From positions 1 to 40,080 of the forward strand of contig CAZYYC010000006.1 of NCBI GenBank assembly GCA_964650935.1: a stretch of 40,080 bases of DNA, given 5' to 3'. Made by a program: the position numbers and the translations under genes. Below, one piece after another: positions 5,538 to 35,890 of this stretch. The notes under the pieces were generated by a model that was not told the origin of the DNA, made no database searches, and saw nothing but the letters and a program-made list of their open reading frames with translations. Every line of letters begins with the position of its first letter. Within the stretch, counting starts at the first letter, position 1. The DNA comes from an uncultured Anaerolineales bacterium (GTDB taxonomy: Bacteria; Chloroflexota; Anaerolineae; B4-G1; SLSP01).

Positions 5538-8720
<3,183 letters not shown>

Positions 8721-8728
8721 TGCACGCC

Positions 8729-9457
8729 TCACAGAACGTCGGGATTGATCGTCACCGCATAGTCGGGGACGACGTGGACGGCGTGGACCAAGGGCCAATA
8801 CGCCCCGCGCCACTTGCGGCTCAGTCCCAGCGTGAGATAGAGCGCTTCGGCGCCCAGGCGTTCGGCCAGCCCGTCCGCGTCGAGCGTGAGCTCGCCTCCC
8901 TGGGCCGTCAACCAGGTCTGCCCGAGGGCGCGCCATCTGAGATCGGTGACCGAGCATCCTCGGTCGCTCTGAGCTCGCGGGTGCTGTCGCTTGCAGTCGA
9001 GTGTGAAGCCCATCCGCGCGTCGTATCTGCCGGAGACGGGATCGAGACTGAAGCGCGCCCAGAGGTCGCGCGGTTGCACCAGGCAGAGCGAACGAATGTG
9101 GTCGCAGAGGACCTCCTCCGGGGCCCCATCGAGGTATTTGGGGAAGAAGGCGGCGCGACGCTCACCCTCCAACCGGCGTACGACGCGCGGGCGTTGGTGC
9201 ACGAAGTCGGTCACCCAGTCCTCGACGTGGGGCGGGTCGGGGCGGGCGGTGATGAGGTTGAGGGCCACGACGTCGCAACAGTGGATGAGGCGACCGTCCT
9301 CATCGGTCATATCGCCGGGCAGGACCGTGCCGAACTCCCGCGTCGGTCGGATCCAGCAGAGCCCCGTGGTCGGTGCGGGATCGCAGGAGAAGCCCGCCGT
9401 GCAGATTCCGCTGAGCATCTTGGTCATCGCCAGGATGAGCACTTCCTGAGTGGGCAT
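8729..9457 (-). CDS. Hypothetical protein, 242 aa, no family I can name with confidence (possibly an OB-fold-like nucleic-acid binder)
   Basis: Intact ORF with GGGAGG 6 nt upstream of the ATG. Composition is non-shadow. N-terminus MPTQEVLILAMTKMLSGICTAGF...GLCWIRPTREFG; C-terminal part ...VTDLRWRALGQTW...LYLTLGLSRKWRGAYWPLVHAVHVVPDY. It is wedged 8 nt upstream of recQ and 58 nt downstream of a DUF488 gene. Confidence 0.7.
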   Translation of the reverse strand: MPTQEVLILAMTKMLSGICTAGFSCDPAPTTGLCWIRPTREFGTVLPGDMTDEDGRLIHCCDVVALNLITARPDPPHVEDWVTDFVHQRPRVVRRLEGERRAAFFPKYLDGAPEEVLCDHIRSLCLVQPRDLWARFSLDPVSGRYDARMGFTLDCKRQHPRAQSDRGCSVTDLRWRALGQTWLTAQGGELTLDADGLAERLGAEALYLTLGLSRKWRGAYWPLVHAVHVVPDYAVTINPDVL

Positions 9458-21266: not shown

Positions 21267-21917
21267 ATGAACAAGCGTGAGAAGCTGGAACTGATACGGT
21301 CGACGGGCGTGGTCGCGATCATGCGAGCGCAGAGCTCGGACCAACTGATTGCAGCGGCGGACGCGATCAAGGAAGGGGGCGTGCGCGTCATCGAGGTAAC
21401 GATGACGACGCCCGGCGCGTTGGGCGTGATCGAGGAGGCGACCGATCGCTATGGTGACGAAGTCCTCTTCGGCGCGGGCTCGGTGCTCGACACGGAGACG
21501 GCACGGGCGGCGATGCTCGCCGGGGCCGGCTTCGTGGTCGCACCGACGTTGAGCGTGCCGGTGGTCGAGCTCTGCAATCGCTACGGCGTGCCGGTGATGC
21601 CGGGGATCTACACGCCGACCGAGGCGCTGACGGCCTGGGAGGCGGGGGCGGATATGGTCAAGCTCTTCCCGGCGAGCGTCGGCGGTCCGGATTTGATCAA
21701 GGCCATCCGCGCGCCGCTGCCGCAGTTGGAGATCGTGCCGGTCGGCGGCGTCGACCTCACGACGGCGGTCGACTTTATCCGTAAGGGGGCGGCGGCCCTC
21801 GGCGTGGGCAGCAGCCTGGTGAACCAGAAGTTGCTGGATGCCGGCGATATGGAGGAGCTGACCCGTCGGGCGGTGGCCTTCATCGCCGCGGTAAAGGAGG
21901 GGCGGGGCGAGTCGTAG
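21267..21917 (+). CDS. eda: 2-dehydro-3-deoxy-phosphogluconate / -6-phosphogalactonate aldolase
   Basis: VVAIMRA, GVRVIEVTMTTPGAL, GAGSVLD, VKLFPA and VPVGGV are KDPG-aldolase blocks. The ATG at 21267 is 4 nt after the kinase stop. The context next to dgoD suggests a DgoA role, but sequence alone does not discriminate. Confidence 0.85.
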   Translation: MNKREKLELIRSTGVVAIMRAQSSDQLIAAADAIKEGGVRVIEVTMTTPGALGVIEEATDRYGDEVLFGAGSVLDTETARAAMLAGAGFVVAPTLSVPVVELCNRYGVPVMPGIYTPTEALTAWEAGADMVKLFPASVGGPDLIKAIRAPLPQLEIVPVGGVDLTTAVDFIRKGAAALGVGSSLVNQKLLDAGDMEELTRRAVAFIAAVKEGRGES

Positions 21918-21946: not shown

Positions 21947-21977
21947 GCGCCCGAAGCTCTCACAGAGCTTCGGGCGC
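21947..21977. terminator. Perfect 14-bp-stem hairpin between the convergent eda and NurA-operon ends (bidirectional terminator candidate)
   Basis: gcgcccgaagctct (21947-21960) is the exact reverse complement of agagcttcgggcgc (21964-21977), with a cac loop. It sits in the 67-bp convergent gap. Confidence 0.6.
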
Positions 21978-21984
21978 TGATGCT

Positions 21985-22608
21985 CTAGCCCCCGTCGATG
22001 CGGCGGAGTATCTTCTCCAGCCGTACGGGGTCGCGGCCCAGATGCTGGGCCAGATAGCGCCCGGCGCTCAGCAGGTAGGCCTGACGATCGGCGCCATCGT
22101 CCGGTGCGGTTTGCTGCAGCACGGTGGGGATGAGCTCATCTGCAGGCAGGTCGCGGTTGTCCAGCAGCGTCCTCAGGAAATCAACGCTTGCCGTGATCCT
22201 GCGTACCTCTTCAGGGGAGCAGACGGTGATCTGGTGCAGGACCATCGGCGGCTGCGGCGGATAGCCGTAGAGATAGCTCTCGGCCTCGCGATAGCGGTAT
22301 CCGATGGCCACGACGGAGATCTCCACCGGCACGGCGCGGTTCTCCCGCTGGTCACGGATGATCTCCGCATACTCGGGCGCATCGGGCACCACGTTCGCGG
22401 CGAGATTGCGCAGGAAGGGGTCGTCCTGCAGCCGGATATCGTAGACGAGGCCGATCAGCTCCGCGGTCTCCTGTTGGATGGGTGCGCGTACGAAGGCGCC
22501 GAAAGTGGGGACCTCGGGCGCAGGGATGCGCGAGGCGATGACAAAGCCGCGGATGTCCGCGCGCAGCACGTTGCCGATGGTGATGGTCTGATCAGATCCC
22601 GACATCAT
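21985..22608 (-). CDS. NurA-associated 207-aa protein with a HerA-type HAS-barrel-like N-terminal domain and no ATPase domain
   Basis: AGGAGAG RBS. The start is 12 nt after the NurA stop. The pattern TITIGNVLRADIRGFVIAS...PTFGAFVRAPI...LIGLVYDIRL...VPVEISVVAIGY...YPPQPPMVLHQITVCSPEEVRRI parallels the HerA N-terminal barrel as I remember it. No Walker A or B anywhere in the protein. Confidence 0.6.
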   Translation of the reverse strand: MMSGSDQTITIGNVLRADIRGFVIASRIPAPEVPTFGAFVRAPIQQETAELIGLVYDIRLQDDPFLRNLAANVVPDAPEYAEIIRDQRENRAVPVEISVVAIGYRYREAESYLYGYPPQPPMVLHQITVCSPEEVRRITASVDFLRTLLDNRDLPADELIPTVLQQTAPDDGADRQAYLLSAGRYLAQHLGRDPVRLEKILRRIDGG

Positions 22609-22620
22609 CTCTCCTATCCG

Positions 22621-23790
22621 CTATCTGCGTCCCAAGAGGGCTTTCTGCTGAGCCTTCTCCGAAGGCAGCGCGAGGTGCCCGGACGCCAGAATCTCTCGCT
22701 GGATGGCCTGCTCCAACGCGGCCTTGTCCTGTGTCGTCACCAGCGCCTCTTCGTGTGCGCGCGCTAAGACATAGGGGTAGCCGTTCAACGCTGCCGCCTG
22801 GTGCAGCAGCGCAGCGTGGGCGACGGCAGGCGCGCGCCCATCGATGGTGGCCCAAGCCGGTATCTCGATGCGGGCGATCGTCGGGTGCTCACCGCTACCC
22901 ATGTGCACATAGCAGAACCAGATCTCCTGACCCTCCTGGGCGTGCCGGTCGTTGGTCGGCGTGGGACGCGTGAACCACGGCGTGCAGGCCCCGGGCGGAA
23001 GGAAGCTGACCATCAGATCCTCATCCGTCAGGTGGTGTAGCGGGCTCTCCCCGATACGTTCGCCGAACTCGTCGGGCCTCAGCCTGCTCGCCCAGAGCAG
23101 ATCGAGTAAAGGCCGTCCACCCGGGCGGTCGACGTAACCGACCGGATGACCGCCTCCGCGCTGCACACGCCGCATCGCCCCCATGTAGGTTCGGAGCGCA
23201 GACCCTGCATCCGGCACGCGGTCAGCATAGGGCCAGAGCAGCGGGCCGTCGAAGAGTCCAATGACCGGTCCCTGCGCATCCGGCGATGACGCGGCCACGA
23301 GATCCGCCAGGACCTCCATCTCCTTGACCATGCGCTCCATCCCCAGTGTCTCCGCCCCGATCAAGTAGCCGCGTTCATCGAAGAGATCGCTCTCCTCGTA
23401 ACGCAACCATTCGAAGGTCCTCGGTGTCGGTGCACTGCCGTCGTAGCGGAAGATCAGCGCGCCGACCTGCAGTAGGTAGTAGAGGGCCAAAGCGTGACGG
23501 TCGGGGAAGATCTGGGAGCCATCCACGCCGATGAGGACCGCGCCCGTGAGCGACTCCGGTGGACAGGCGATCGGGACATTGAGGGGCCGGTCTGTCACGG
23601 GAACCGCACCCGACCAAGGATCCGTTGAGCCGAGTAGGGGCTGAACGTGCCCGCGCAGCTCCTCGGCACCGGGCACCTCAGCCAGCCAACGTTGTGCAAT
23701 AGCCAGTGCATCCTGACGGGCCTGCCTGGTTGCCGCGGCCTGCCGTCCAAGAGCTGCGATGTCCTCACGGATGCGCTCTAGGCGTAGCAT
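22621..23790 (-). CDS. nurA: NurA-domain nuclease
   Basis: NurA catalytic blocks: VLIGVDGSQI (Asp motif), MVKEMEVLADL (Glu), IGLFDGPLL (Asp), and the C-terminal NGYPYVLARAHEEALV. 389 aa with a helical N-terminus. Confidence 0.8.
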   Translation of the reverse strand: MLRLERIREDIAALGRQAAATRQARQDALAIAQRWLAEVPGAEELRGHVQPLLGSTDPWSGAVPVTDRPLNVPIACPPESLTGAVLIGVDGSQIFPDRHALALYYLLQVGALIFRYDGSAPTPRTFEWLRYEESDLFDERGYLIGAETLGMERMVKEMEVLADLVAASSPDAQGPVIGLFDGPLLWPYADRVPDAGSALRTYMGAMRRVQRGGGHPVGYVDRPGGRPLLDLLWASRLRPDEFGERIGESPLHHLTDEDLMVSFLPPGACTPWFTRPTPTNDRHAQEGQEIWFCYVHMGSGEHPTIARIEIPAWATIDGRAPAVAHAALLHQAAALNGYPYVLARAHEEALVTTQDKAALEQAIQREILASGHLALPSEKAQQKALLGRR

Positions 23791-23831
23791 AGGGCCTCGC
23801 TTGACGTGGTCTCGTGTGGGGCCATAGGTCG

Positions 23832-23859
23832 ATTATAGCCGTCGCGTGGCGGGATACAA
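23832..23859 (-). promoter_or_regulatory. Putative sigma70-type promoter of the NurA operon
   Basis: On the minus strand: TTGTAT (complement of 23854-23859), 16-nt spacer, TATAAT (complement of 23832-23837). The -10 is about 40 nt upstream of the ATG at 23790. Confidence 0.45.
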
Positions 23860-23932
23860 GGACGTGAGCGTGTGAGGTCCGCCATTATCCCAAAGGTGCA
23901 GACAGGATTCTGACATAAAGTTGGGATTTATG

Positions 23933-23961
23933 TTGCATGTGCTGGGGATATGTTGTATAAT
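23933..23961 (+). promoter_or_regulatory. Putative dcw (Pmra) promoter
   Basis: TTGCAT (23933-23938), 17-nt spacer, TATAAT (23956-23961), in the only clearly AT-richer stretch of the window. The -10 is 90 nt upstream of mraZ. Confidence 0.55.
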
Positions 23962-23996
23962 GTGGGCGTTGGTGGGGAGAAGTGGGGAAATATGGG
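23962..23996 (+). promoter_or_regulatory. Array of four direct (G/A)TGGG boxes at exact 10-bp phasing: MraZ-operator-like
   Basis: GTGGG at 23962, 23972 and 23982, and ATGGG at 23992, starting immediately after the -10. Additional TGGG at 23922 and 23944 are roughly helically phased. Confidence 0.55.
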
Positions 23997-24050
23997 ACAG
24001 TAGGCCGGCTCCTCCCTATGGTTTCGCCATTCTAGTGGGGACTACTTATC

Positions 24051-32891: not shown

Positions 32892-33422
32892 ATGGTGCCT
32901 TTAGAGACGGTGTTTCTCGGTCTGGTGTTGCTGTTTCTGATCATCGGCGCGCTCCGGGGTTGGGCCAAAGAGCTGCTCGTGGCCTTCAGCGTCGTCCTGG
33001 CGCGCTTCATCGAGTTCGTCGTCCTGATCTACGTGCCGGTGGTCAGCACGGCGTTGCAGACGCTGCAGCAGTCGGATCCGAAGACCTGGTTCTACGTGCG
33101 CCTGATGATCTTCATGCTCCTGGTCTCCTTTGGTTATGCGACGACGGTCATCTCGTCGCGACTGGGCTCGCGGGCGCGCAAGGAGAAGCTTGAGGACACG
33201 CTCTTGGGCCTCTTCCTGGGGGCCGTCAACGGCTTTTTGGTGATCGGGACGGTGTGGGGATTCGTCCACGAGATGGGCTACAACATCTGGGGCATCACGG
33301 GGCCGCAGAGTGAGGCCGCGCAGAACCTGCTGCGCTACCTACCGACGGAGTGGTTACAGGGACCGTCCCTCTTTGTAGGGGTCGCTGTGGCCTTTGCCTT
33401 TGTCCTGATTGTCTTCGTGTGA
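32892..33422 (+). CDS. CvpA-like small integral membrane protein (four predicted TM segments)
   Basis: 176 aa. MVPLETVFLGLVLLFLIIGALRGWAKELL... resembles the N-terminus of the colicin V production protein (CvpA) family. GAGGAAG upstream. The track ORF 32511..33422 was trimmed because its 5' part overlaps murG out of frame. Confidence 0.6.
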   Translation: MVPLETVFLGLVLLFLIIGALRGWAKELLVAFSVVLARFIEFVVLIYVPVVSTALQTLQQSDPKTWFYVRLMIFMLLVSFGYATTVISSRLGSRARKEKLEDTLLGLFLGAVNGFLVIGTVWGFVHEMGYNIWGITGPQSEAAQNLLRYLPTEWLQGPSLFVGVAVAFAFVLIVFV

Positions 33423-35890
33423 GTGAGGCTGTGATCGATAACGCGTCGGTTCAGGATCCCGTGGGCGCCGAGCGCCTGCCGGGTATCAGCGAGGTGCACA
33501 TCGTCGGCATCGGAGGTGCCGGCATGTCGGCCATCGCGCGGGTCCTGCGCGGATGGGGCGTGCGCGTGCACGGCTCGGACCGCGCGGCATCACCGCTGAC
33601 TGAGGCGTTGTGCGCGGAGGGCATTGCGGTGTCGATTGGGCACCGTGCGGAGAACATCGGCGCGCCCGATCTGGTGCTGGCGTCCTCCGCCGTGCCCGAT
33701 GATAACATCGAGCTGGCCGCTGCGCGAGAGCAAGGGGTCCGGGTAGCCCGCCGGCCCGAGTTCCTGACCACGCTGACCGCCGGCTATGACGTGATCGCTG
33801 TGGCGGGGGCGCACGGCAAGACCACGGTGACGGGCATGGTCACGCTGGCGATGCTGGAGGCGGGGCTCGATCCGACCTACATCGTGGGTGGGGTGATGGC
33901 CAACCTGGCGACGAACGCACGGGCCGGTGAGGGTCCGCATTTTGTCATCGAGGCGGATGAATACCGGCGAACCTTCCTGGCGCTTCACCCGACGATCGCG
34001 GTGGTGACCAACGTGGCCTTTGATCACCCGGACTGCTTTGAGGACCTGGGCTACGTGCGGCTGGCTTTCGGCGAGTTTGTGGACAACATCGTGCCCGGTG
34101 GGCTCTTGGTGGCCTGTGCCGATGATCCGATCGCTAGGTCGCTGGCGGCATCGCATCACGCTAACGGTGGGCGGGTCGTGCTCTATGGGATCTCCGAAGC
34201 GTCGGCGGATTGGCGCGCGCGCGACGTGCGCACCAACGACGCGGGCGGACTGACCTTTGCGGTGGAGCACCACGGGATACCGCAGGGGGAGGTGACCCTG
34301 CAGCTGCCCGGTGAGTACAACGTGCTCAACGCACTGGCTGTAGTGAGCGTGGCCTCCGAACTGGGCCTCGAAGTCGAGGTGGCACGCCAGGCGTTGGCGC
34401 ACTTCGAGGGCACAGCGAGGCGGTTCGAGGTCCTGGGGGAGGTCGGAGGGATCACCGTGGTCGATGACTACGCCCATCATCCCACACAGATACGCGGCGT
34501 GCTCCAGGCGGCGCGCGATCGCTATGGTGAGCGGAGGCTGGTGGCGGTCTGGGAACCCCATACCTTCAGCCGGGTTCGGGCGCTCTATCCCGACTTCATG
34601 GCCGGCTTCGACGCGGCGGATGAGGTGCTGGTGCTGCCCATCTATGCTGCCCGCGAGGTGGATGACGGCTCGCTGACCTCGCGCGATCTGGCGCGGGATC
34701 TGGCTGAGGCCGCTGCCCGACCTTCGCGAGGTCCTGAACGGCCGCGACGGTTCCGGAGCGCGGCGACGTTGGAGATGGCGGTGGAGGAGCTCGCCAGCAC
34801 GTGCCGCCCGGGCGACGTGGTGCTGCTGATGGGGGCGGGACGCGAGTATGTGGTCGGAAGGCAGCTGCTTCAGCGGTTGAGCTGCGTCAACGTCGACCAG
34901 CCCGCGTCGACGCTCAAGGCGCGCTCGCTCACCGAGCGCTCGCTTGACGCGATCGCCGAGGCACTGCCGGGTGTCGCCGAGCGTCATGCGTCTCTGGCGC
35001 GCTACTCGGGGCTGGGGATCGGCGGACCGGCTGATGTGCTGGTGGTCGCCCGCCGGCGCGAGGAGCTGTTGACGGCGGTCGCTAGGGCGCAGGCGTCGGG
35101 CCTGCCGTGGAAGGTGTACGGCGGGCTGACGAATATCTTGCTGCCCGATGCCGGCTTGCGGGGTGTGGTCGTGCTCAATCGCATTCAGGAGCTGACGTAT
35201 GGTGATGACTACCGCCTCACGGCAGGCGCCGGTGTGGTGGTGGTGCAGCTCGTCCGCGAGTTGCTGGCGCGCGGATGGGGGGGGCTGACCTGGGCTGTGG
35301 GCCTGCCGGGGACGGTGGGCGGCGCAGTGGTGAACAACGCCGGGGCCTTCGGCGGCGAGATCTCACGCGTGCTGGCTGCTGCGGATGTGCTGTGTCTTGA
35401 CGGCACGGTCGCGCGGGTGCCGGTGGACTGGTTCGACTTCCGCTATCGCTGCAGCAAGCTCAAGGGTGCTGGCGCGGCGTGGGTTGTCCTCAGCGCCGAC
35501 TTCCGGCTCCGACCGGGCGATCCGGACAAGTTGAGCGCCAAGGCGGAGGAGTACACCGAACGGCGCCGACGCTCCCAGCCGCCGGGGAGGACGCTCGGTT
35601 CGACCTTCAAGAACCCACCGGGCGATTACGCGGGACGCCTGATCGAGGCGGCGGGGATGAAAGGCGCGCGCTGTGGGGCCATCGAGGTGTCCACCCAGCA
35701 CGCCAACTTCCTGATGAATACCGGCGGCGGCACCGCGGCGGATTTCCGCGCGCTGATCGAGCGTGTGCAGGAGACGGTCAACCGGCAGTTCGGTGTGCTG
35801 TTGGAGCCGGAGGTCGAGATCGTGCCGGAGCCGCCAAGCGGCGTGGCCGGGATATCCGCGGAACGCGGCGTCGACTGCGTTGAGGACTAG
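33419..35890 (+). CDS. murC-murB: Bifunctional MurC (UDP-N-acetylmuramate--L-alanine ligase) :: MurB (UDP-N-acetylenolpyruvoylglucosamine reductase) fusion
   Basis: N-terminal half: HIVGIGGAGMSAIA, AVAGAHGKTTVT, EADEYRRTF and DDYAHHPT. C-terminal half: SGLGIGGPADVLV, YGGLTNILL, GLPGTVGGAVVNNAGAFG, GSTFKNP and STQHANFLMN. One continuous frame. The probable start is GTG 33419 (GTGA overlap with the upstream stop) or GTG 33431; there is no ATG before the Rossmann motif. Confidence 0.9.
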   Translation: MSEAVIDNASVQDPVGAERLPGISEVHIVGIGGAGMSAIARVLRGWGVRVHGSDRAASPLTEALCAEGIAVSIGHRAENIGAPDLVLASSAVPDDNIELAAAREQGVRVARRPEFLTTLTAGYDVIAVAGAHGKTTVTGMVTLAMLEAGLDPTYIVGGVMANLATNARAGEGPHFVIEADEYRRTFLALHPTIAVVTNVAFDHPDCFEDLGYVRLAFGEFVDNIVPGGLLVACADDPIARSLAASHHANGGRVVLYGISEASADWRARDVRTNDAGGLTFAVEHHGIPQGEVTLQLPGEYNVLNALAVVSVASELGLEVEVARQALAHFEGTARRFEVLGEVGGITVVDDYAHHPTQIRGVLQAARDRYGERRLVAVWEPHTFSRVRALYPDFMAGFDAADEVLVLPIYAAREVDDGSLTSRDLARDLAEAAARPSRGPERPRRFRSAATLEMAVEELASTCRPGDVVLLMGAGREYVVGRQLLQRLSCVNVDQPASTLKARSLTERSLDAIAEALPGVAERHASLARYSGLGIGGPADVLVVARRREELLTAVARAQASGLPWKVYGGLTNILLPDAGLRGVVVLNRIQELTYGDDYRLTAGAGVVVVQLVRELLARGWGGLTWAVGLPGTVGGAVVNNAGAFGGEISRVLAAADVLCLDGTVARVPVDWFDFRYRCSKLKGAGAAWVVLSADFRLRPGDPDKLSAKAEEYTERRRRSQPPGRTLGSTFKNPPGDYAGRLIEAAGMKGARCGAIEVSTQHANFLMNTGGGTAADFRALIERVQETVNRQFGVLLEPEVEIVPEPPSGVAGISAERGVDCVED

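Follow-up and report, generated by a model that had tools for sequence, protein, structure and literature searches.

The nurA-X locus

The 40,080-nt stretch of DNA analysed here (called the window throughout; contig CAZYYC010000006.1 of an uncultured Anaerolineales bacterium) carries, at 21985–23790 on the minus strand, a pair of genes encoding a NurA nuclease and a small protein, here named X. The N-terminal part of X is predicted to have the fold of the HAS-barrel of HerA, the translocase partner of NurA. The features of the locus are as follows.

22621–23790, minus strand: nurA, encoding a NurA nuclease of 389 amino acids (aa), assigned by Pfam PF09376.
22609–22620, minus strand: nurA-X spacer of 12 nt, with both genes in the same frame, read from the sequence.
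21985–22608, minus strand: X, an open reading frame (ORF) of 207 aa with a HAS-barrel-like and a helical domain, from the sequence and an AlphaFold2 model.
21947–21977, unstranded: perfect 14 bp inverted repeat with a 3-nt loop, GCGCCCGAAGCTCT-gtg-AGAGCTTCGGGCGC, read from the sequence.
23791–24050, unstranded: divergent intergenic region of 260 bp between nurA and mraZ, from the sequence.

A preliminary description of this DNA had reported a 207 aa gene lying 12 nt past nurA, and the same coordinates were recovered here, on the minus strand; gene callers start X at the second ATG, giving a protein of 206 aa (P0001). A Shine-Dalgarno-like motif, GGAG, is present at 22611–22614, 2–5 nt upstream of the X start, and a small gap or overlap between nurA and X is typical of most related loci. 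The perfect 14 bp hairpin described earlier as preceding a convergent gene was also found. It is placed in the 67-nt gap that separates the stop codon of X from that of a convergent 2-keto-3-deoxy-6-phosphogluconate (KDPG) aldolase gene, at 21917. The hairpin has no T-tract and a terminator scan made no call at 21947–21977; the repeat probably marks the end of the transcript. On the other side of the pair, nurA is divergent from mraZ, rsmH, ftsL and a penicillin-binding protein (PBP) gene, the start of the dcw cluster, and the 260 bp between nurA and mraZ must hold the nurA-X promoter. No HerA homologue was found across the 40-kb window.

The NurA protein

The 389 aa protein matches Pfam PF09376 with E=2.9e-17 and 63.4 bits (cutoff 21), over profile positions 3–252 of 254, and a phmmer search of the PDB with it returned no sequence match. 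A helical extension of about 85 aa at the N-terminus is followed by the RNase-H-like NurA domain (residues 86–349). The four motifs on which the gene had originally been named (GVDGSQ, EMEVL, FDGPLL and YPYVLARAHEEA) are all present. In an alignment with eight homologues (A4), residues D90 (in GVDGSQ), E157, D181 (in FDGPLL), Y340 and H346 (in GYPYVLARAHE) are invariant. The corresponding residues named in Sulfolobus NurA are D58, E116, D133 and Y298 (PMC3326311), and these are matched by D90, E157, D181 and Y340 according to motif position (GxDGSQ, E, D, PY) rather than structural alignment. As the active-site residues are invariant and agree with the Sulfolobus set, the NurA of the window looks catalytically competent from its sequence. 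Exact short contigs from two metatranscriptome runs fall inside nurA, at 22898–23179, and are weak evidence of expression.

Sequence and predicted fold of X

Sequence searches with X gave no match in Pfam (E up to 1), NCBIfam, PADLOC or PHROGs, and those against the PDB, whether with the single protein or with profiles A1 and A2, gave only chance helical matches. The absence of an ATPase motif noted earlier is borne out, as the Walker A pattern GxxxxGK[ST] does not occur in the sequence, which contains a single lysine, and no ATPase domain was matched. An AlphaFold2 model based on 49 homologues has a mean predicted local distance difference test (pLDDT) score of 87 and a predicted template modelling (pTM) score of 0.82, and divides the protein into two domains.

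22222–22590, minus strand: X residues 7–129, HAS-barrel-like beta-barrel, from AlphaFold2 and Foldseek.
21988–22221, minus strand: X residues 130–207, family-specific C-terminal domain of five helices (residues 132–206), from AlphaFold2.

The barrel contains a helical hairpin insert at residues 64–89 and ends at a motif, LPPQPP, that is found family-wide. When the model was compared with the PDB by Foldseek, HerA chains made up all 50 of the 50 best matches (E down to 3.4e-5), in alignments of 130–153 columns that run through the N-terminal HAS-barrel. Among them are chains of the HerA-NurA complexes 9x1m and 7f6d, of TdpAB, and of the Sir2-HerA and DUF4297-HerA systems. The likeness to a HAS-barrel proposed in the preliminary description has therefore passed the structural comparison suggested there. 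Weak matches to the Pfam HAS-barrel family (PF09378) were obtained for 25 of 74 X family members, the best with E=2.5e-5; one of the family, P0113, scores 12.7 bits, below the cutoff of 25.2. The C-terminal domain has pLDDT values of 92–96 within the full model and 87.6 when folded alone, and a fold search of the PDB with this domain alone gave nothing significant (best E=2.4).

The assignment of a HAS-barrel fold to the N-terminal part of X holds, as a match of a predicted model to solved structures. X is not a HerA, since the ATPase core is absent and only a five-helix bundle follows residue 130. Going by the model, it is a stand-alone HAS-barrel-like domain joined to a family-specific helical bundle.

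The X family

A word-indexed search found 253 homologues of X with lengths of 200–215 aa, and an exhaustive profile search found 592 clusters at 50% identity, almost all with a length near 200 aa; fusions to an ATPase do not occur among them. All members that carry a name are from Chloroflexota and all are annotated as hypothetical. P0240 (3724 aa, 15 matched stretches) was set aside as a false positive: it is a repeat protein of fungal cell walls. PF26500.1 appears in the precomputed annotation of five family members (P0097, P0101, P0108, P0109 and P0113), and this accession gave no match in the local Pfam copy; part of the family may thus already be included in a newer Pfam entry.

The short length of X is the sole point in favour of reading it as an artefact, a full-length herA cut short by a sequencing or assembly error, which had been raised as a way in which the original proposal could fail. 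X is no such truncation. The 253 homologues and 592 clusters share the length of about 200 aa, and the two-gene layout recurs in 57 species genomes (see below). Contigs from Logan that match the nurA-X region come from eight independent sludge metagenomes, and none has a length change that extends the X ORF. The C-terminal part of X is also predicted to be a confidently folded helical bundle and not a fragment of an ATPase. Taken with these results, an artefact is hardly credible.

The same sludge data contain a co-existing strain variant of X, seen in run X4 and partly in run X5, with a cluster of substitutions at window positions 22204–22384 (X residues ~75–135). The variant carries a 1-nt deletion at 22378 and a 1-nt insertion after 22384, a compensated frameshift of two codons; it falls in the part that encodes the helical insert of the barrel, which is poorly conserved.

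X lies between nurA and herA in related Chloroflexota

Outside the 50% identity cluster to which the window belongs, all X relatives on long enough contigs are located between nurA and a full-length herA (loci L060, L064/65, L066, L067, L068, L153, L154 and L155). The HerA proteins of these three-gene loci are 544–588 aa long and carry PF01935, and many also have their own HAS-barrel (PF09378). A scan of metagenomes of the Joint Genome Institute (JGI) with a HerA profile provided 50 herA loci having at least 2.2 kb of upstream sequence. X is found upstream of herA and on the same strand in about 42 of the 50, accompanied by nurA in about 41 of those, and X is always closer to herA than nurA is. 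In L067 (7593–13609), L154 (6278–11365) and L155 (11945–16539) the three genes are followed by genes for an AlkZ-like protein, a Mre11-like phosphoesterase and a Rad50/SbcC-like ATPase. This arrangement, nurA-X-herA-alkZ-mre11-rad50, corresponds in bacteria to the mre11-rad50-herA-nurA cluster of archaea.

nurA-X-herA is taken as the ancestral order of the genes, with alkZ-mre11-rad50 often behind it. Its presence in sister lineages indicates that the ancestral system had three parts, and that the window holds a derived version in which herA is no longer linked. A reading of X as a HerA stripped of its motor, or as a stand-in for HerA, does not survive this comparison, as sister lineages keep X together with a full-length herA that has a HAS-barrel of its own. 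Because the HerA linked to X is already so equipped, X is better seen as an extra, HerA-derived subunit than as a replacement for HerA.

Several of the three-gene loci carry additional genes. A toxin-antitoxin-like pair (MNT nucleotidyltransferase and HEPN) lies between X and herA in L060 (5684–6468), from a groundwater Chloroflexi MAG (metagenome-assembled genome). L155 carries two extra genes (6455–7950), a NUDIX gene separating nurA from X and a PDDEXK_3 gene of 123 aa separating X from herA; L066 has a PDDEXK_3 gene of this length at the same place (5581–5952). L066 also has a PHP-SMC_N fusion of 873 aa in place of the AlkZ/Mre11/Rad50-like genes.

A clade in which nurA-X is unlinked from herA

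One genome per GTDB species was scanned with clade-specific peptide patterns taken from alignment A1. This gave 58 loci, all in Chloroflexota MAGs (Anaerolineae and Thermoflexales), one of which (L060) is the herA-linked outgroup, leaving 57 species genomes in the clade that includes the window. Wherever a contig extends far enough upstream, X is immediately preceded by nurA (58 of the 63 loci fetched, a count that includes a few duplicates and L060), and the expectation that the pairing would be conserved in related genomes was thus confirmed. With L060 set aside, none of the fetched clade loci has a HerA homologue in the 10 kb on either side of nurA-X. The statement made earlier for the window, that no motor gene is encoded in cis, can accordingly be extended to the clade. 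Nor is any third gene conserved beside the pair in the clade loci, the downstream side being variable. Divergently upstream of nurA, mraZ, rsmH, ftsL and the PBP gene are present in about 45 of 56 clade loci.

Within the clade, X proteins are at least 57% identical, and they share at most about 52% identity with any herA-linked X; for NurA, identity between clade and herA-linked forms is 43% or less. At 80% nucleotide identity, no single clade reference reaches more than 9 of 55 members. The ratio of non-synonymous to synonymous substitution rates (dN/dS) for X is 0.07–0.26, indicating purifying selection. At equal divergence of NurA, X is 58–63% identical in the clade compared with 44–50% in three-gene loci. 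Purifying selection on X, together with its higher conservation in the clade, shows that it is not a decaying remnant.

The pair could also be considered as a HerA-type anti-phage defence module, similar to Sir2-HerA or DUF4297-HerA, given that defence-type HerA chains are among the Foldseek matches and that some of the three-gene operons contain inserted toxin-antitoxin or PDDEXK genes. However, neither NurA nor X is matched in PADLOC or PHROGs, and the chromosomal place of the pair beside the dcw cluster is fixed in the ~45 of 56 loci mentioned above. The operon of the relatives is linked to the repair genes mre11, rad50 and alkZ, and the sequences are highly conserved rather than fast-evolving. 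A defence function is very improbable.

Orphan herA genes

Among the 50 metagenomic herA loci, 8 have neither nurA nor X within 6 kb. The existence of these orphan loci demonstrates that the operon does split in this phylum. In two of them (L140 and L132), herA directly follows a polysaccharide deacetylase gene (340 aa), the product of which is 81% (L140) and 71% (L132) identical to that of the gene found just upstream of nurA-X in locus L032. The three deacetylase-anchored loci are:

L032, 4315–7367: nurA-X, without herA.
L140, 4684–7635: herA, without nurA-X.
L132, 2103–5003: herA, without nurA-X.

No remnants of the missing genes are present at these loci, and L032 on the one side and L140 and L132 on the other look like the complementary halves of an operon fission at one anchor gene.

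HerA proteins retrieved by two protein searches are all 67% or less identical to the orphan HerAs, and include no close relative of them. Read depths were compared as well. The window organism is present at depth 4–9 in eight sludge runs, and one herA contig type at depth 4–12 in seven of the eight, a range (4–12x) too narrow to link that contig type with the window organism. An X cluster and a HerA cluster, both with a longest contig of 4286 bp, were considered as sharing a single contig; this was ruled out, as the contigs are distinct.

Proposed role of X

The explanation favoured here, with moderate confidence, takes X as a paralogue of HerA's N-terminal HAS-barrel with an added helical domain, and as the third subunit of a Chloroflexota NurA-HerA end-resection machine, with nurA-X split from herA in the clade of the window. 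On the simplest reading, X would be a structural subunit touching both partners; it could take the form of a HAS-type ring, or of an adaptor that joins the NurA dimer to the HerA hexamer, and the helical domain peculiar to X would supply specific contacts. A structural role is suggested by the reproduction of the HAS domain, by the translational coupling of X to nurA, and by the company that X keeps with either partner. In solved structures, the NurA dimer is seen docked on the hexameric ring made by the HAS domains of HerA (PMC9960219, PMC3326311). X may likewise build a HAS-type ring, complete or partial, on which the NurA dimer docks. The nurA-X half of the operon would have parted from herA in the Anaerolineae/Thermoflexales clade, becoming a two-gene operon of its own, usually beside the dcw cluster, and the NurA-X nuclease module would still cooperate with a HerA translocase whose gene lies at another place in the genome. 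For this last part, that herA is present elsewhere and that NurA-X uses the motor in trans, the balance tips slightly towards yes; the orphan herA loci, and the apparent complementary halves at the deacetylase gene, count in its favour.

A number of observations weigh against this explanation. On the side of X itself, ring formation and NurA binding are proposals that draw on the predicted model and on analogy with HerA. The X of the window lacks any Pfam HAS-barrel match (E up to 1), and an hhalign comparison of the X family with a HerA alignment covers 28 columns at a probability of 3%. It pairs the G..V......G.V.DI strand of X with the equivalent barrel strand of HerA. With so weak a match, the case for homology between X and HerA rests on fold and not on sequence. 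The pairing of X with nurA is also not universal. L130 (5079–7617) has X-herA and no nurA within 5 kb upstream, where a glycosyltransferase gene and a LacI gene are found instead. In L107 (57–7605), a DDE transposase gene and metabolic genes separate nurA from X-herA. Since X can remain with herA when nurA has been split off, it is not exclusively a NurA partner.

The remaining observations on this side concern the motor. herA has not been seen in any clade genome, the view being 10 kb each side of the pair. In a mirror-tree comparison, intact loci gave r 0.77 for proteins of the same locus and r 0.23 across loci, and the clade NurA and X reach r 0.43 or less with the sampled orphan HerAs. They mirror the HerAs of the group around L068 better (r 0.62–0.67); those HerAs of the group that were looked up are all still in a three-gene operon. 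In addition, a long branch sets the clade forms of both NurA and X apart from the herA-linked ones. Judged from the sequences, this branch fits a functional shift after loss of herA as well as it fits plain phylogenetic distance.

Several of the same results can be read as signs of a motor-independent NurA-X, in which the clade lost herA and an ATPase-less ring of X serves as a passive clamp or scaffold that keeps the NurA dimer on DNA. Such a complex would carry out a HerA-free task, for example nicking or the trimming of flaps or ends, possibly tied to cell division given its place beside mraZ. herA is absent within 10 kb of the pair in the 57 clade species genomes, no third gene has been retained beside nurA-X, the branch of clade NurA and X is discrete as well as long, X is relatively more constrained than in the three-gene loci, and the mirror-tree comparison does not tie the sampled orphan HerAs to the clade. 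HerA-independent nicking is known for NurA of D. radiodurans (PMC9960219). However, a gene missing in cis is not the same as one missing from the genome, and orphan herA genes do occur in related Chloroflexota, in one group at the same anchor gene as a clade locus. Furthermore, the archaeal NurA and HerA need each other for activity (PMC3326311). A NurA-X that works without a motor is rather unlikely. Slightly more doubtful is its full form, in which an entire clade within the Anaerolineae dropped the HerA motor and NurA-X became a passive, ATP-independent toroidal complex with a new role, perhaps coordinated with cell division; the link to division is suggested by the fixed position of nurA-X beside the mraZ/dcw promoter. 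The rest of the probability, a smaller share, is assigned to other roles.

X might instead act as a regulator or decoy, a HAS mimic that covers the HerA-docking surface of NurA and, until displaced by HerA or by DNA damage, holds the nuclease in an inactive or stored state. The part of HerA that X resembles is exactly the part that binds NurA (fold matches; PMC9960219), a second docking barrel looks redundant when HerA already has one, and X accompanies either partner when the operon splits. The tight translational coupling and presumed 1:1 gene dosage nevertheless fit a structural subunit equally well, and the strong conservation of X in a clade where herA is not adjacent is no less compatible with a constitutive partner. 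A decoy or regulatory role is less likely than a structural one, and improbable overall.

A conserved third protein derived from the docking domain of HerA, and distributed over a major bacterial phylum, would change models of the stoichiometry and regulation of NurA-HerA. One possibility is a HAS ring of X stacked on the HAS ring of HerA, or competing with it. The herA-unlinked clade provides a natural separation experiment on whether NurA can work without a translocase, and about 600 clusters of hypothetical proteins gain a concrete function to test.

Other genes and sequence features of the window

Upstream of mraZ, at 23933–23997, a TATAAT sequence is found at 23956–23961, with TTGCAT 17 nt before it. 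Facing mraZ, GTGGG repeats begin at 23962, 23972 and 23982, a spacing of exactly 10 nt, and are followed by TGGGA at 23993. These repeats are presumably MraZ boxes. The array looks like an MraZ operator array at the sequence level, and it lies in the same 260 bp region as the nurA-X promoter. A promoter scan made no call on the TATAAT/GTGGG region.

A RecQ-family helicase of 1139 aa is encoded at 5538–8957 (minus strand), 13 kb from nurA-X. It has DEAD, Helicase_C, RecQ_Zn_bind, RQC and HRDC domains, preceded by an N-terminal extension of about 390 aa without domain assignment, and is the sole DNA-repair helicase among the large window ORFs scanned. Inside the dcw cluster, an ORF of 846 aa at 33350–35890 (plus strand) is a fusion of a Mur ligase (MurC-like) with MurB, the MurB part consisting of FAD_binding_4 and MurB_C.

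Comparison with known systems

NurA-HerA has been studied as a two-component machine, and in the searchable literature no paper was found on a third gene in nurA-herA operons or on a stand-alone HAS-barrel partner of NurA. The nearest known system, which the locus would resemble in function, is the NurA-HerA end-resection complex, represented by those of D. radiodurans (7F6D), S. solfataricus and T. kodakarensis (9X1M). The nuclease family (PF09376) and catalytic residues are the same, the HerA encoded in the operons of the relatives likewise belongs to the known family (PF01935 plus HAS-barrel), often with mre11 and rad50 alongside, and the N-terminal domain of X shares the fold of the HerA HAS-barrel that docks NurA. 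The known complex has two parts, with a HerA:NurA ratio of 6:2, whereas here there is an extra HAS-barrel protein of 200 aa with a unique helical domain, and in the clade of the window herA is not beside nurA.

Proteins of the HAS-barrel family PF09378, in which the domain is N-terminal in HerA and in the alpha and beta subunits of the F1-ATPase, share the beta-barrel with X, and the G..V...G.V.DI and P.P motifs of X are collinear with those of HerA. X differs from them in being unfused to a P-loop ATPase, in that the protein of the window obtains no Pfam match, and in having a C-terminal bundle without a counterpart in the PDB. The defence-type HerA systems (Sir2-HerA/Nezha, DUF4297-HerA and TdpAB) supply HerA chains that are among the best fold matches of the X barrel. 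In contrast to these, X has no ATPase, the locus has no Sir2, DUF4297 or TdpB partner, and its context is one of housekeeping and repair genes and not a defence island. The most fitting description of X is that of a new family of stand-alone HAS-barrel-like proteins, at a locus that derives from the NurA-HerA end-resection system.

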